A stretch of 64,000 nucleotides of DNA, taken from Promethearchaeota archaeon (GTDB taxonomy: Archaea; Asgardarchaeota; Lokiarchaeia; Sigyniarchaeales; SOKP01). Where the stretch lies: the NCBI GenBank assembly GCA_048941285.1, contig JBHLNS010000002.1, positions 1 to 64,000 on the forward strand, in the 5' to 3' direction. Below the pieces are notes generated by a model. It was not told where the DNA came from. It made no database searches and saw nothing but the letters and a program-made list of their open reading frames with translations. Positions 43,991-50,653 of the stretch are shown one piece after another (positions within the stretch are counted from its first letter, which is position 1; each line of letters opens with the position of its first letter). Made by a program: the position numbers and the translations under genes.

Positions 43991-45334
43991 TCAAGAGGAT
44001 ACTGTTAAATTATTAAAGACCATATATGGAAATAGAGAATTTTCAAAAAACTCTCGTTCTTTCGAAATGTATTGACAATCTCCAAGCATTTTGATAACAT
44101 TACCACTAATATTGCCAAGTTTGATTGGATATTCGATCTTTCCATTCTTAATATAATAACCATTTCTAATTTCTGCTCCAAAAGCTCCTGACAATTTACT
44201 TGGATTTAACCAGGAAAATTGATCAATATAATAGCCTTCATTAATTTCAGAAATAATATCATCCAAATTCATAGTTCCAGGTAATATCTCAAGGTTACTT
44301 ATTCCATTATTTATAATTTCTGTTCTTATATCTCTTATTGCATTTCCGGTTGAACTTTGATTGGAAAATATTGCATATCTCTGATCGTAAATATATTTCT
44401 GGAAAATGCCATTCTTGACAATTTCGGTTCTTTGACGCGGGGAGCCTTCAATATCCCATCCATTGGTTCGTAATCCTCCTTTTAATAACCCATCATCTAT
44501 AATAGAGATTTCTTCAGAAGCTACTTCTTGATCAATTTTAAATCGAGATATTTTTTGAAAAAAAGCTCTTCCTGAAGAATGATTTTCTATTACAGGGTTG
44601 AGTGCTTTATTTAATACTTGCGGAGAAAAAATAACTGTTGCTTTTTCCTTCGGTTTAGGTACTTTCGCGATTAATGAATCTTGAGCTAGTTTTACCCAAT
44701 GTTCTACTCTTTCTGGAAAATTTAATTGATCTTTATCTTTAATAAATAAATAAGGCCAGTATTCTGATAATTTTCCCTCTTTTTGAGATTTCAAAGAGAA
44801 TTCTACAAAAAAATACGTTTTTATATTGCTCAAATTGAGATCATTACTATTTCTTAAAGAGATCTTATCGATATGAACACGAATACGACCGAAAGTAGGC
44901 TGAATTTCTTTATATTGTTGTATCTCTGAAATTAATTCTTCAGCTAGAATATTTTTAGTATTCAAGGGGTCTTGAATTACTTTTTTATCAGCAATAATTG
45001 TATCATGAAAAGAAGCTTGACCAGGAAAATAAAATTTTGAGCCTAAATTACTTTTTGCTATTGAAATGCATATATCTATATTTCTCTCAATTTCTTTTCG
45101 ATCTAAAGAATTCCCTTTTACCAATCCAACACCGGTTTTATCCTCCTTATGAGTCAGTATTCGCAAAAAGTATTTAAAATCATTAATATCTCTTTCAGTA
45201 TCAACCTTATCTTTTAGAAATATTGATTCATATGATTTTCCATCTGTAAGAAAAATCTCATAATCAGTGATATGCTTGTCTTTTATTTCCTTTTCTATAA
45301 TATCTATTTTCTCATTAGACAATTTTTCACTCAC
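43991..45334 (-). CDS. pmbA: PmbA/TldE metalloprotease partner subunit
   Basis: WDIEGSP, GNAIR, SGAFG, GYYIKNGKIEYPIK; no HExxxH; overlaps the tldD stop. Confidence 0.88.
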   Translation of the reverse strand: MSEKLSNEKIDIIEKEIKDKHITDYEIFLTDGKSYESIFLKDKVDTERDINDFKYFLRILTHKEDKTGVGLVKGNSLDRKEIERNIDICISIAKSNLGSKFYFPGQASFHDTIIADKKVIQDPLNTKNILAEELISEIQQYKEIQPTFGRIRVHIDKISLRNSNDLNLSNIKTYFFVEFSLKSQKEGKLSEYWPYLFIKDKDQLNFPERVEHWVKLAQDSLIAKVPKPKEKATVIFSPQVLNKALNPVIENHSSGRAFFQKISRFKIDQEVASEEISIIDDGLLKGGLRTNGWDIEGSPRQRTEIVKNGIFQKYIYDQRYAIFSNQSSTGNAIRDIRTEIINNGISNLEILPGTMNLDDIISEINEGYYIDQFSWLNPSKLSGAFGAEIRNGYYIKNGKIEYPIKLGNISGNVIKMLGDCQYISKEREFFENSLFPYMVFNNLTVSS

Positions 45335-46713
45335 CCTGGACTAATTAAAACTTCATTGATCCTAAGATAACTACCTCCATCACTAACAGGTACCTTATCA
45401 TAATGACCCTTTCCACACACACCACCATGGAATTTTGTAGAGTCTTTACTTATTGCATCGATGTTATTTAGAACATTTAAGACATGTCCACTTAATGCGA
45501 TTGATTTTAAAATTTGTGTTCTTTCACCATTTTTTATTAAATATCCTTTCTTGGATGTAGCTTGTAGCCCACCCCCTAAAGGATCCTCCATTCCGAAAAA
45601 TGAATGATTACACATTACACCTTCTTTAATTTCAGATATAATTTCTTCTAGATCATAATCCCCTGGTTCGAAGTAGGTATTAGACATTCTTGGATGAACT
45701 ACATGAGCGTAACTTTGCCTTCTTCCGTTTCCTTGAGGATCTTTACCAATTACTGAGGCACTTCTTCTGTCATAGATGAAATTTGTTAAAATTCCATTTT
45801 CTACTAAAATATTTTTTCCTGCTTTAATTCCCTCATCATCAAAGAAATAAGATCCTATCTGACCTTCCATATTAGGCGCATCACATATTACACATATGTC
45901 TGAAGCAACTTGTTTATTCAATTTATTCTCAAGATAACTTCTTCCTCTTAAGATTTGATCCGCTTCTAAACCATGACCAAAACTTTCATGTGCAATAATT
46001 CCTGCCATTGATGGATCCACAATTATAGGAAATTTCCCAGATGGAGGATTTTTAGCCTTTAACATATCTAGAGAGTTATTTACAATTTTTTCCAATTTAG
46101 AGTTATTTAAATCATCAAAAATTTCAAAACCTGCTTGGCCTTCAATTACTGAATGATCATAATCAACTGTATTACCTTCTTTAACAATAGGAAAAATAAA
46201 AAATCTCAACCGTGGAATGACTTGTCTTAATTGACTTCCTTCATTATTCACAAAAATACGAGTTATTTCAGATTCTTGATATTTTAATTGACACATTAAA
46301 ATCCGTTCATCATAATTTTGAATAAAGTTGTAAATATCTCTAATTTTCTTTAATTTTTCTTCAATGGGTATATCTCTTGAGTCAATTTTCGGCTTAACTT
46401 CTTTATTCAGAATCCAACCTGCTAATTCCGCAAGTTGTTCACCTTTATTAATTACTTTGGGTATTTTTTCGAGAGCTTTATTAATATTAGAAATATCATC
46501 AAAAGCTACTTCTTTCCAATTTCCATCAAACGTTCTGGCTACAATTCCAGAAGTTTTTACGTTTATTGAAACTATTTCTGTAGAAGGATTTTTTTCAATG
46601 TATGTAACCGATTGTGAATCATATAAAATGTCAAAATATTGGTTTTTTCGGTTAAAAGAATTTGCACTCTCTTCAAAAGCAGAAATAATCTGATCATAAG
46701 AATGATCAATCAT
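45331..46713 (-). CDS. tldD: TldD metalloprotease
   Basis: HESFGHGLEAD, FDDEG, GNGRRQ, PRMSNTY, CGKG. Confidence 0.92.
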   Translation of the reverse strand: MIDHSYDQIISAFEESANSFNRKNQYFDILYDSQSVTYIEKNPSTEIVSINVKTSGIVARTFDGNWKEVAFDDISNINKALEKIPKVINKGEQLAELAGWILNKEVKPKIDSRDIPIEEKLKKIRDIYNFIQNYDERILMCQLKYQESEITRIFVNNEGSQLRQVIPRLRFFIFPIVKEGNTVDYDHSVIEGQAGFEIFDDLNNSKLEKIVNNSLDMLKAKNPPSGKFPIIVDPSMAGIIAHESFGHGLEADQILRGRSYLENKLNKQVASDICVICDAPNMEGQIGSYFFDDEGIKAGKNILVENGILTNFIYDRRSASVIGKDPQGNGRRQSYAHVVHPRMSNTYFEPGDYDLEEIISEIKEGVMCNHSFFGMEDPLGGGLQATSKKGYLIKNGERTQILKSIALSGHVLNVLNNIDAISKDSTKFHGGVCGKGHYDKVPVSDGGSYLRINEVLISPG

Positions 46714-46799: not shown

Positions 46800-47711
46800 T
46801 TAAATTTCTAAATCTAAGGATTGGTGATTTGGATTTGAATTTTTTTCAAGATAACTTATCCTTTTTTCTAAGATAGTCATTGTTTCGATTATGTTATTGA
46901 GAACTTTGTTTGTTTCTCTAATCTCATATTGGAGGTCACCAAGCTGATTAAGAAGGAATGACAATACCTTTGATTCTCTTACAGGTTCTATTAACCAATT
47001 AATAATGTTTTGTAAAAATTTCCGATTATCGAATGTATTTATACCTATTCTTGAATTTGAAGTAAATATATCAATATCTCCGATTGCTACAACTTTCCCT
47101 TGTCCAAATTCTGTATATGAAGCAATAATTTGCTGTTTCTCTTGATCTTTACTCCATTCTTCAGAAGTATTATTATAAATTTCAGACCAAACAGATCTTT
47201 CATTTGATTGCAATAATATTTTTGCTTCTTTATTTAAAAATAAGGAACAAGATCCTCCGATAATAATTTCTCTTAGATTTTTTGTAATTTGATGTTTTAT
47301 AAAATCTTGGATATGTAAAATACTAGTACAATTTTGATTATTACTATTTATCTCTTTAATTATGTTTTTCTCAAAGAAGATACCGAATTTTCCTGAAATG
47401 TCATTTAGATTAGTTTTTTGAAGGTAATCCGCCCCGTATTCACTTAATAACAATAATCCCCCTCCATTTCTTACATAATCAATAATATGTTTAATTTCTA
47501 AACTTGAAAAGAAGTCGTCAATTGGGTTGCCAAGAATTAAGAGGTCAATATTTTCTAAAATTTCTCTTGTGATATGACTGTTTTCATTTTTGATAATTTT
47601 AAGATCTTGTTTTCTAAGGAGATCTAAAAATTCACTAAATTCGTCCTCATCAGTATTCAACATTTCATTATGAGCGAGATCAATTAGGACAGTTTTCTTA
47701 AAAGTAGGCAA
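46800..47711 (-). CDS. GIFT/GldG/DUF4350-like (class I glutamine amidotransferase-like fold) protein with C-terminal coiled coil
   Basis: LIDLAHNE, DLLILGNP, EIKHIIDYVRNGGGLLLLSE, GQGKVVAIGDIDIF, NRKFLQNIINWL. Confidence 0.7.
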   Translation of the reverse strand: MPTFKKTVLIDLAHNEMLNTDEDEFSEFLDLLRKQDLKIIKNENSHITREILENIDLLILGNPIDDFFSSLEIKHIIDYVRNGGGLLLLSEYGADYLQKTNLNDISGKFGIFFEKNIIKEINSNNQNCTSILHIQDFIKHQITKNLREIIIGGSCSLFLNKEAKILLQSNERSVWSEIYNNTSEEWSKDQEKQQIIASYTEFGQGKVVAIGDIDIFTSNSRIGINTFDNRKFLQNIINWLIEPVRESKVLSFLLNQLGDLQYEIRETNKVLNNIIETMTILEKRISYLEKNSNPNHQSLDLEI

Positions 47712-47916
47712 GATTCTTTAGAAGGGAGTGTTTTTGTTTATTTTAGATTTATAAAATAAGTTTATGACTTACAAGAAAATTCGAATATAAAAATCATTAC
47801 CTAACTAATGGATTTCTGTTCTTATCAACCAAAAATTTTTTAAAGTTAATATAATAACTTATTTTGGACTCAAAAAAGATTATAATTATACAAAATTATC
47901 AAAAGGAAAATGACAT

Positions 47917-49249
47917 ATGAGTAAAACTATTGCCGTTATAGGCCTTTCGTGGGGAGTTTAGTTTTGCATGCCGCATACTAACCCTATACGAAGGCAAAGG
48001 CAAATTTGTTGACTTTTTAGCACAAAAGGCAGACATTGTTGTTCGATACAATGGAGGGAATAACGCGGGCCATACCATAAATGCTAATGGTGTCAAATAC
48101 AAGTTTAAGTTAATGCCATCTGGAGCTCCTTTAGAAAAAGAGGGTGTAATAGCCAATGGTTGTGTGGTAGATCCAAAAATCTTGCTAGAAGAAATTGAAA
48201 ACCTAAGGAAATTGAATAAAAAAGTCAATTTGAAACTGAGTTCTACAGCTCATGTAATTTTTCCCTTTCATCGTATCTTAGATGGATTAGAAGAAAAAAC
48301 AAAAGGAAATTATGCTGCTGGGACCACAAAAAGAGGAATTGGCCCTGCTTATTCGGATAAAGCAGCTCGGTGGGGTTTAAGAATCTTTGATTTAATAAAT
48401 CCTGAACTCTTGCAATCAAAATTAGAAAAACTGTTTAAAATTAAGAAAGACCTCATATCGTTATATGATCCCAATGTAGATATTAATTTAGAAGCTATCT
48501 ATGAAGAATACAAAACCTATGGGGAACAATTAAAACCTTTTGTAATTGATACAACATATTATTTGAATAAAGCTGTTGATTCTGGAAAAAAAGTTCTTTT
48601 TGAAGCAGCTCAAGGTAGTCTTTTAAGCATTGATTTTGGAATGTACCCTTACGGGACTTCTTCTAATGCAAACGCTTTAGGTATTTCGTCAGGTACTGGA
48701 ATTCCCCCTAAAAAAATTATGAAGGTAATTGGAATTGTAAAAGCATATACTTCTCGTGTTGGTGAGGGTAAATTCCCCACAGAGTTATTTAACGAAACAG
48801 CGGATAAAATCAGAGAACAAGGACATGAATATGGAACTGTAACAGGAAGACCAAGAAGGGTTGGATGGCTAGATCTTTTTAATATTCAATATGGAATTAT
48901 GATTAATGGTGTTGATAAAGTCATTATAACTCTTTTGGATGCGTTACAAGGGATTAACCCAATCAAAATTTGTATTGGCTATGATTTAAAAGGCATACAA
49001 CTTGAAAGTTGGCCAATACAATCAGAACTAATTGAAAATTGTGAACCGATTTATAAAACTTTTGAAGGTTGGGAGGAAAAGACTAGAGAAGAATGGTTGG
49101 ATATAGCGAAAAAAGGATATGATGCCCTCCCAGAAACTATGAAAACGTATATTCAAGCAATTAAAAATATCCTTAAAACTGATGTTGCAATGGTTTCGAT
49201 TGGACCAGATAGAAAGGAAACAATAGTGTTAGAAGATGTGAATTTTTAA
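47917..49249 (+). CDS. purA: Adenylosuccinate synthetase, split: join(47917..47956,47988..49249), 433 aa after removing a 31-nt insertion
   Basis: Joined frame reads [43 protein letters not shown] and continues in frame into ORF 48113..49249 (GTTKRGIGPAY, EAAQG, YTSRVGEG, EYGTVTGRPRRVGWLD). Confidence 0.93.
47957..47987 (+). other. Candidate bulge-helix-bulge/loop (BHB/BHL) intron in purA mRNA
   Basis: TTTAGTTTTGCATGCCGCATACTAACCCTAT interrupts G|AC (Asp14). 4-bp central helix GGGG/CCCU, bulges AG^U and AU^A, inner stem UUAGU/ACUAA, outer exon stem GCC-UUCG/CGAAGGC. Confidence 0.75.
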
Positions 49250-49269: not shown

Positions 49270-49830
49270 TTATTTAAAACATACTAAACCAAACCGATAA
49301 ACAAATTCATTAGGAGGCCATTCTATTTTGAAATTTAGGTTTTTTACAGTCTGAGTTACATCAATTCCGACTGCTTCCATCGAATATCTCTTTTTACCTG
49401 GATATCGACAAGGATTACCTGCATCATATGTACAACCTTTATCTTTTTCATTAAAACATACTCTACAAAATCCATCCCATAAAATAAGTATATCATCATA
49501 AAGGTCTTGATACTGATGTATAAATAAACTAATTTGTTGTTCTAACTTATCTCGTAGAAGATTTTTCATAAAAAAAGCACTTTTTATATTATTTTCATTT
49601 CTGTTAGGATGTTTTCGTTTTTCTTTATAAACATGCTTCTGTAAATTGTAAGAAACGTATATAAGAAAATGCTTTTTATATTTTGAAACTTTTTGTTCTA
49701 AATATGGTGCTTCCGGTGGGCAAGCCCAAGAATGACCATAACTAGGGCATTTAAAACCAGAATTAATACAATAATTTTGTATTTTTCGATCAAATATAAT
49801 ATCCTTAAACTGTATTTCAAGAAAAGGCAA
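49270..49830 (-). CDS. DUF2284 family metal-binding protein
   Basis: CPSYGHSWACPP, GFCRVC, CRYP, RYSMEAVGIDV. Confidence 0.85.
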   Translation of the reverse strand: MPFLEIQFKDIIFDRKIQNYCINSGFKCPSYGHSWACPPEAPYLEQKVSKYKKHFLIYVSYNLQKHVYKEKRKHPNRNENNIKSAFFMKNLLRDKLEQQISLFIHQYQDLYDDILILWDGFCRVCFNEKDKGCTYDAGNPCRYPGKKRYSMEAVGIDVTQTVKNLNFKIEWPPNEFVYRFGLVCFK

Positions 49831-49990: not shown

Positions 49991-50653
49991 GTGAGACGAA
50001 TGAAATTAAAATTAAAAAGCGAGAAAAGAAATCAGCTACTGAATGCAGCAAGTGAATTTAATAATGAAGTTTTAAATGGTTCCCTATTACTACATGATTG
50101 TATAACCGATTTAGTAAATGAAAAGTTAGATAAGAAAAGATTAGACAAAGTTATTGAATGTGAACATAATGCAGACCGAGCTAAAGAAAAATACATTGAT
50201 TTACTTTATAAAGATCAGCGAGCGCTTCCTTTTCTAGTTGAAGATCGTTATAGATTAATCAAATATTTGGATTTTGTCTCTGATGGCTCAGAAGAGCTGG
50301 CAATGGGGCTAAAAGTATATCCTTTTGATCTCTTTGATGATATTAGAGATAAAGTAAAAATACTTAACGATTTGTATCAAGAAACAATTGATACTTTAAT
50401 TGATATGGTAAATCTTATGGAAACAGATTTTAAAACTGCCTACCAAAAAAGTTTTCACATAGAAACTCTAAAACGAAGCGCTCGTGAAGCAAAATATAAC
50501 ATCCTAGAAAAAATTTATCAAAAACCTAAAGAAAAATCTCTTCGTGTATATTTAACATCAAAAATTTGTATAAAAATGTTTGATATGATAATTAGGGCTG
50601 AAGAGATAAGCGATTTTCTTAGAAGTTTAATAGTTAAATACCCAAGCAAATAA
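49991..50653 (+). CDS. DUF47/PhoU-like phosphate transport regulator
   Basis: ECEHNADR, REDR-like EDRYRL, helical-bundle pattern; directly upstream of a PiT transporter. Confidence 0.82.
   Translation: MRRMKLKLKSEKRNQLLNAASEFNNEVLNGSLLLHDCITDLVNEKLDKKRLDKVIECEHNADRAKEKYIDLLYKDQRALPFLVEDRYRLIKYLDFVSDGSEELAMGLKVYPFDLFDDIRDKVKILNDLYQETIDTLIDMVNLMETDFKTAYQKSFHIETLKRSAREAKYNILEKIYQKPKEKSLRVYLTSKICIKMFDMIIRAEEISDFLRSLIVKYPSK

Follow-up and report, generated by a model that had tools for sequence, protein, structure and literature searches.

A 31-nt insert in the catalytic Asp codon of an Asgard archaeal purA gene is very probably an mRNA intron of the bulge-helix-bulge class

We analysed a 64,000-nucleotide stretch of DNA (the window) from a Promethearchaeota archaeon (GTDB lineage Archaea; Asgardarchaeota; Lokiarchaeia; Sigyniarchaeales; SOKP01), corresponding to positions 1 to 64,000 of the forward strand of contig JBHLNS010000002.1 in GenBank assembly GCA_048941285.1, in which the purA gene, coding for adenylosuccinate synthetase, is interrupted by 31 nt at positions 47957-47987. 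Sequence comparisons indicated that this insert is very probably (at roughly 85%) a genuine mRNA intron of a relaxed bulge-helix-bulge (BHB) class, which would be excised by the tRNA splicing endonuclease EndA and sealed by the ligase RtcB; we infer both the splicing as such and the participation of these two enzymes. According to the mechanism proposed, the transcript would fold so that GGGG in the exon, contributed by the Trp and Gly codons, pairs with CCCU in the intron, leaving the bulges A-G^U and A-U^A on opposite strands (carets mark the predicted cuts). This core would be braced by a hairpin within the intron and, in most species, by an exon-exon helix. A heteromeric splicing endonuclease, (alpha-beta)2 in type, would cut after the second base of each bulge and RtcB would ligate G47956 to A47988, giving the catalytic Asp of GDEGKGK its GAC codon within a 433-codon open reading frame (ORF). 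The 31-nt intron would be released, probably in circular form.

The interrupted gene is made of three parts. Throughout, G000 designates the window's own genome, other G-numbers designate genomes and L-numbers designate loci or contigs.

47917-47956, + strand: purA exon 1, with the ATG, 13 codons and G as base 1 of the Asp codon
47957-47987, + strand: putative intron of 31 nt, in phase 1 within the catalytic Asp codon, containing an in-frame TAG
47988-49249, + strand: purA exon 2, with AC to complete the Asp codon, then 419 codons that begin with EGKGK, and the stop codon

The frame opened by the ATG at 47917 is stopped by the TAG at 47959-61. A second frame, starting at 47990, stays open for 419 codons up to the stop at 49247-49249, and exon 2 gives a full match to the Adenylsucc_synt family (PF00709, E 5.9e-154, profile positions 10-416 of 416). 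Excision of 47957-47987 joins G47956 to A47988 and yields TGG GGA GAC GAA GGC, encoding WGDEG; the resulting ORF has 13 + 1 + 419 = 433 codons and the catalytic-motif context WG-D-EGKGK is restored. In the window DNA, the Asp codon of the GDEGKGK P-loop is formed only once the insert is excised, and excision is required for a functional PurA protein. We take the split Asp to be the catalytic base, equivalent to Asp13 of E. coli PurA. The exon-2 frame also encodes GGNNAGHT, downstream of EGKGK. The position of the junction is fixed to a single base, since 47955-56 reads AG and 47986-87 reads AU, leaving no room for sliding. The only junction that provides both a G|AC Asp codon and an open frame corresponds to the predicted cuts G47956^U and U47987^A, and this was the case in all 18 sequences checked. 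The exon 1 peptide and its start codon are common to intron-bearing and intronless relatives, and the N-terminus of an intronless relative (msnniaiiglswgdegkgk) aligned position by position, GDEGKGK included, with solved PurA chains.

The RNA elements predicted around the insert were as follows (numbered as in the DNA).

47942-47949, + strand: 5' strand (GCC.UUCG, Gly-Leu-Ser codons) of the outer exon-exon helix h, pairing with 47989-95
47951-47954, + strand: 5' (exon) strand GGGG of the central 4-bp helix, in the Trp and Gly codons, pairing with 47982-85
47955-47957, + strand: 5' bulge A-G^U, with the predicted cut after G47956, the junction required by the ORF
47958-47981, + strand: intron hairpin h', made of UUAGU (47958-62) paired with ACUAA (47977-81) and an apical UGC (47965-67) paired with GCA (47973-75), closing on a loop at 47968-72
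47982-47985, + strand: 3' (intron) strand CCCU of the central helix; relatives have CCCC (turning a G-U into a G-C pair), CCUU (L090) or ACCU (G052 and G042)
47986-47988, + strand: relaxed 3' bulge A-U^A, facing U47950, or a 2-nt bulge if U47950 and A47988 pair; predicted cut after U47987
47989-47995, + strand: 3' strand (CGAAGGC, Asp-Glu-Gly codons) of the outer helix, pairing with 47942-49

The 5' half of this motif is canonical and the 3' half is relaxed. RNAalifold run on 12 homologues paired U47950 with A47988, and the arrangement fits the relaxed HBh'/BHL (bulge-helix-loop) classes, not the canonical hBHBh' form. The minimum free energy (MFE) fold of the single sequence (-21.6 kcal/mol) kept the 5' AGU bulge and the intron hairpin; 5 of 200 shuffled sequences folded as well. 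We estimated how frequently such an arrangement is expected by chance at a pair of fixed cuts separated by 31 nt in this genome. A central helix with 4/4 pairs occurred at 2.5% of positions; adding an abutting inner helix of at least 5 bp reduced the rate to 2.6e-4, and adding an outer helix of at least 6 bp, in any of three registers, left 25 of 7,084,682 positions (3.5e-6). The BHB cut rule, i.e. cleavage after the second base of each bulge, points to exactly the junction that restores the frame.

Inserts at the identical site were found in relatives. In a first sample, 10 of 22 loci from the genus carried an insert of 30-31 nt, and WGDEGKGK was uninterrupted in the other 12 as well as in all 8 loci sampled from the order's other families. 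Searching 54 genomes of the genus with a pattern built on the flanking codons and a gap of 12-42 nt returned 17 matches; a second pattern, allowing a G|AT Asp codon, added one genome (G042), giving 18/54. Since purA was found in 49 of these 54 genomes and one copy (G050) was without its 5' end, the insert is present in 18 of 48 assessable genomes. Its length varies between 30 and 32 nt across relatives. A sample of 400 genomes from the phylum returned the same 17 genomes plus G269, one of 42 sampled in the sister genus; the pattern used there was blind to G|AT codons and to variants without the Trp codon, so that counts outside the genus are lower bounds. The reversed pattern, used as a control, gave 5 matches in the 400 genomes. 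Two further matches of the forward pattern, in G125 and G033, were rejected because the loci were not purA. Scanning metagenomes identified 17 loci, of which 15 included the 5' end: 14 were intronless and one (contig L090) carried a further variant of the intron. No intronless twin of an intron bearer was found among these 15 loci, and there was no hint of cDNA. The insert is therefore known from 19 genomes, each assembled separately, and from one metagenome contig, as 20 different but related sequences.

Comparing these inserts provided evidence that the structure is maintained. On 12 distinct sequences, the structure drawn from the window was paired in 89% of cells, as compared with 27-44% when the 3' partners were slid by 1-3 columns. 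Changes on both sides of a pair were seen at four pairs, three in the intron hairpin (UA/AU, GC/AU and UA/CG) and one in the outer helix (UA/CG), a number reached by 1 of 500 shuffles. In these 12 sequences, the central helix was paired in 100% of cells and the outer helix in 84.5%. Across 18 sequences, the central helix had 4/4 pairs in 17 and 3/4 in G052; in the extra variants inspected by eye, it had 3/4 in G042 and 4/4, with two G-U pairs, in L090. The bases of the 5' bulge were A-G-N in 18/18 sequences. This 3-nt bulge was canonical in 16/18, the MFE folds of G004 (4 unpaired bases versus 1) and G041 (a larger loop) being different, and the inner helix abutted it in 16/18. The outer helix had at least 3 bp in 13/18. 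All 18 intron bearers use GGA as the Gly codon, despite the third base being free in the search pattern, whereas intronless relatives use GGA, GGC, GGG or GGT; this uniformity fits a constraint imposed by GGGG-AG, the exon half of the motif. Within the apical part of the intron (47965-47975), GCA...CGCA was near-invariant in the 12 sequences, beyond the need of two G-C pairs, and the loop was most variable.

These results bear on a preliminary description of the same DNA. The start codon, TAG, exon limits, 31-nt excision and 433-aa ORF that it gave all check out, and the base pairings that it proposed are present in the sequence. Its claim that the predicted cuts coincide with the only motif-restoring junction was confirmed, and its call of a relaxed 3' side agrees with the U47950-A47988 pair and with the strict register being found in 0/18 sequences. 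The same-position inserts with covarying stems, which it suggested looking for in other Asgard genomes, do exist in relatives.

The host encodes the tRNA-splicing machinery that such an intron would need. Two EndA-family ORFs were found in G000 (PF01974, 104 and 69 bits), together with one RtcB (568 bits). The EndA ORF of 198 aa could be aligned along its entire length to PDB chain 3p1z_B (E 9e-35), the N-terminal loop region included, and has kept the Tyr, His and Lys residues; in the second, of 201 aa, the catalytic His is replaced. These two paralogues, judged by their sequences, fit an (alpha-beta)2 enzyme. ARAGORN detected 31 tRNA genes in G000 and called an intron in 19 of them, indicating that the splicing endonuclease is heavily used. 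The tRNA introns are 9-78 nt long, apart from one doubtful call of 1953 nt, and some tRNA genes were probably missed owing to additional or non-canonical introns. Asgard EndA is described, in the available portions of two reports (PMC5829648; bioRxiv 10.64898/2026.10.13.758758), as an (alpha-beta)2 enzyme with an L1 loop and broad specificity, and relaxed motifs are among the substrates attributed to such enzymes in the first of them. From this literature (PMC5829648, as far as its available text goes), we infer that the host EndA would be able to cut relaxed motifs.

Several observations weigh against an EndA-spliced intron. RNA evidence is absent: one of four public RNA runs matched the window (share 0.09), and its contigs (47600-47702 and 47780-47930) stop short of the intron; they decide neither way because none reaches it. 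The single-sequence fold beat shuffled sequences only modestly (z -2.09), and the MFE structure was not in the BHB register, the central helix being lengthened to 6 bp. One mismatch in the central helix was found in both G052 and G042, and the outer helix was reduced to 1 bp or less in 5/18 sequences. A strict canonical 3-nt bulge on the 3' side was found in none of the 18 sequences, a 3x1 loop or a 2-nt bulge being present instead. The specificity of EndA for purA RNA is a prediction. Finally, no other gene of G000 showed the same arrangement above background in a genome-wide screen that is weak for short exons and relaxed motifs. This screen, which combined the BHB motif with ORF fusion, returned 52,644 raw motif matches and 2,023 fusing candidates, with no excess over controls in which the 3' cut was moved by 1 or 2 nt (2,082 and 2,109). 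Stricter versions gave no excess either: 4 candidates versus 6 and 3 in the controls, 163 versus 173 and 170, and 33 versus 59 and 46 when both exons were required to have at least 40 codons. The stricter screen recovered purA itself. Eight candidates with two long exons were looked at, none of them convincing; judged without homology, they resembled ordinary intergenic spacers made of a stop codon, a ribosome-binding site and a start codon. With no second gene above background, an mRNA substrate would be an exception for the EndA of G000. A wider inference, that core metabolic mRNAs are spliced in this way in general, was not borne out, as the screen gave purA only.

The non-canonical 3' site, common to all 18 sequences, and the missing outer helix in five of them leave some room for removal of the insert from the RNA by another route (a self-cleaving motif of small size, or an endoribonuclease or ligase other than EndA and RtcB), the more so as the link between EndA and purA RNA rests on prediction. 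We nevertheless consider this route unlikely. Each strand of the conserved 4-bp helix is followed, two bases to its 3' side, by a cut; this symmetry is the signature of EndA, as described for the cbf5 intron in the text available from PMC2738675. Relaxed motifs are among the reported targets of the L1-loop (alpha-beta)2 enzymes discussed above (PMC5829648). At 31 nt, the insert is below the size of group I and group II introns. Rfam returned just a sub-threshold miRNA match, to mir-567, which was rejected (19.3 bits versus a gathering score of 90).

A still less probable explanation is ribosomal recoding, in which the ribosome would either shift frame in a programmed manner or hop over 47957-47987 (translational bypass). 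The stop codon two codons past the break and the hairpin would be in keeping with it, and such a combination of hairpin and stop bears a loose resemblance to the gene 60 take-off site of phage T4. However, the length of 31 nt is not divisible by three. Were the ribosome to shift into the frame of exon 2, about 11 foreign residues would stand where the catalytic Asp belongs, and this frame meets a stop within the insert in L012 and L015. Nor could a bypass work, because the DNA has no GAC or GAT before GAA and the Asp codon needs the joining of G47956 to A47988.

We also weighed whether purA is a pseudogene, or produces an N-terminally truncated protein from Met 48113. The longest plain ORF under table 11 is indeed 48113-49249 (378 aa), and gene callers would report either that or a broken gene. 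But the gene bears the marks of use. The ratio of non-synonymous to synonymous substitution rates (dN/dS) in exon 2 of 17 intron bearers spanned 0.039-0.150, the median being 0.088, with 124 of 136 pairs usable and dS about 1 or above. Of the 18 intron bearers checked, 17 have an exon 2 that stays open for all 419 codons; the other is G004, with only 67 open codons (locus L070). The preliminary description had named a second intact purA, with relaxed selection on this copy, as the sign of a pseudogene; together with the low dN/dS, a single purA was found in G000 (3.55 Mb, 94% complete), and each of the 18 intron-bearing genomes of the genus gave a single match. A product starting at 48113 would be devoid of both GDEGKGK and GGNNAGHT. 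Exon 1 (13 codons) and the stretch of exon 2 that precedes this Met (41 codons) are both conserved. Loss of function or truncation is therefore as improbable in our view as recoding. G049 is the sole genome of the genus with two full purA matches (C26:145985-147232 and C55:3444-4691); neither fits the intron patterns, and with a contamination of about 7% the second copy may derive from another organism.

An assembly or sequencing artefact, for which nothing speaks other than the genomes being metagenome-assembled, can be dismissed for practical purposes, since one and the same site carries the insert in the 19 separate assemblies and the metagenome contig, as 20 distinct related sequences with compensatory changes.

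The intron itself was better conserved than four-fold degenerate sites. Among 14 sequences with 31-nt introns, intron identity was 0.74, compared with 0.45 at four-fold sites of the same genes, and it was higher in 91/91 pairs. Its distribution over the purA tree is patchy: by parsimony, 5 changes in the state of the insert are needed on a tree with 42 rows, at least 3 of them forced by well-supported branches. This was a quick IQ-TREE gene tree with SH-aLRT (approximate likelihood ratio test) support, unrooted and displayed with midpoint rooting, which does not fix the order of gains and losses. The tree left out the duplicates L032, L037, L039, L040, L042, L044, L045, L046 and L049, the non-Asgard L052-L064, and the later-found G041, G004, G048, G052, G061, G042, G269 and L090. 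Taken with the one bearer in the sister genus, this would most simply mean that the intron is old within the family and was later lost precisely several times, a history also put forward for cbf5; alternatively, the intron may have moved between lineages by transfer. Two genomes, G041 (L068) and G004 (L070), have introns of 32 nt at the same site which kept the GGGG/CCCU helix and the hairpin. The body of these introns was no more similar to that of the window than shuffled sequences (identity 0.50-0.54 versus 0.47, sd 0.07), whereas their PurA is as close as in genomes whose introns are 0.74-0.87 identical. Replacement or re-insertion at one site is possible. No relative of the intron was found in G000 by blastn-short with positions 47950-47990, beyond the query itself (next best E 1.2).

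A bolder proposal is that purA splicing is a regulated checkpoint and not a neutral scar, translation of PurA being gated by EndA and by the GTP-dependent RtcB. We regard this as unlikely. If it were true, PurA, a GTP-consuming enzyme of the AMP branch, would be tied to GTP supply and to the capacity for tRNA maturation, and the system would represent an archaeal counterpart of unconventional splicing of the Ire1/XBP1 type in the closest prokaryotic relatives of eukaryotes. The conservation of the intron above four-fold sites and the different intron bodies of G041 and G004 at the same site would then reflect selection to keep an intron.

Turning back to the intron as such, its nearest parallel is the cbf5 pre-mRNA intron of Crenarchaeota (Watanabe et al. 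2002; Yokobori et al. 2009, PMC2738675). As far as the available text of the latter goes, both are short introns within coding sequence with a relaxed BHB, in hosts with a heteromeric splicing endonuclease, and both have a patchy distribution, put down to lineage-specific loss for cbf5. The cbf5 intron is there described as interrupting a catalytic Asp codon behind its first base, and each cut in its unconventional BHB as falling between residues 2 and 3 of the bulge (PMC2738675, same portion). Both coding-sequence introns, at 47956/47988 in purA and in cbf5, thus split a catalytic Asp codon between bases 1 and 2, which may be a coincidence or may reflect a preference for conserved G-rich codon contexts able to supply the exon half of the motif. 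The two also differ. purA encodes an enzyme of purine biosynthesis and cbf5 a protein of RNA modification; the host is an Asgard archaeon and not a crenarchaeon. Splicing of cbf5 is backed, in the text available, by cDNA and in vitro work, whereas the purA intron is known from DNA. The cbf5 gene of G000 is uninterrupted.

Similarly to the BHB introns of archaeal tRNA and rRNA, half of the purA motif is made of exon sequence and the motif logic is the same, in a genome rich in tRNA introns; Asgard tRNA genes in general are heavily interrupted, according to the portion available of bioRxiv 10.64898/2026.10.13.758758. Unlike those RNAs, purA RNA is translated and the exon half is also under coding constraint (WG and DEG codons). 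The HVO_1309 intron of Haloferax volcanii is another mRNA cut by EndA at a BHB, reported in vivo and in vitro in the available part of PMC7714728. It differs from the purA intron in being located in a 5' untranslated region (UTR), so that no codon is split, and in a host EndA of a different type (PMC7714728, same part). Besides this 5'-UTR case, the crenarchaeal cbf5 intron was the only mRNA intron reported before, as far as the accessible text of that paper indicates.

A resemblance in working, with no homology implied, extends to HAC1/XBP1 splicing. In that eukaryotic system, a structure-recognising endonuclease and joining by an RtcB-type or tRNA ligase remove a short intron and change the frame. 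The endonuclease there is Ire1 and the process is stress-regulated.

No report of a purA intron, or of any BHB intron in an Asgard mRNA, was found in the literature searched, from which most subscription journals were left out, in line with the preliminary description, which was not aware of a described purA intron. The comparisons presented here make a well-supported case that the purA intron would be a so far undescribed member of a class with one confirmed coding-sequence example. A second case would show that splicing of mRNA by the tRNA machinery is not an oddity of cbf5, this time in a core metabolic gene of Asgard archaea, with covariation across about 20 genomes. Work on mRNA splicing without a spliceosome would also gain a concrete substrate, in the lineage nearest to eukaryotes. 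In practical terms, gene callers will score purA as truncated or broken, and AMP synthesis may wrongly look missing in reconstructions from Asgard metagenome-assembled genomes.

The surroundings of purA include three ordinary neighbours, none of them tied to RNA processing by its domain matches.

45331-46713, - strand: PmbA/TldD metallopeptidase
49270-49830, - strand: DUF2284 metal-binding protein
49991-50653, + strand: PhoU_div/DUF47 protein

Upstream of purA, an ORF of 303 aa on the - strand (46800-47711) matched the IFT52 GIFT domain (PF23355, 42.8 bits versus a cut-off of 27.2), along with a weak match to ABC_transp_aux; the IFT52 GIFT domain is otherwise eukaryotic and associated with intraflagellar transport.

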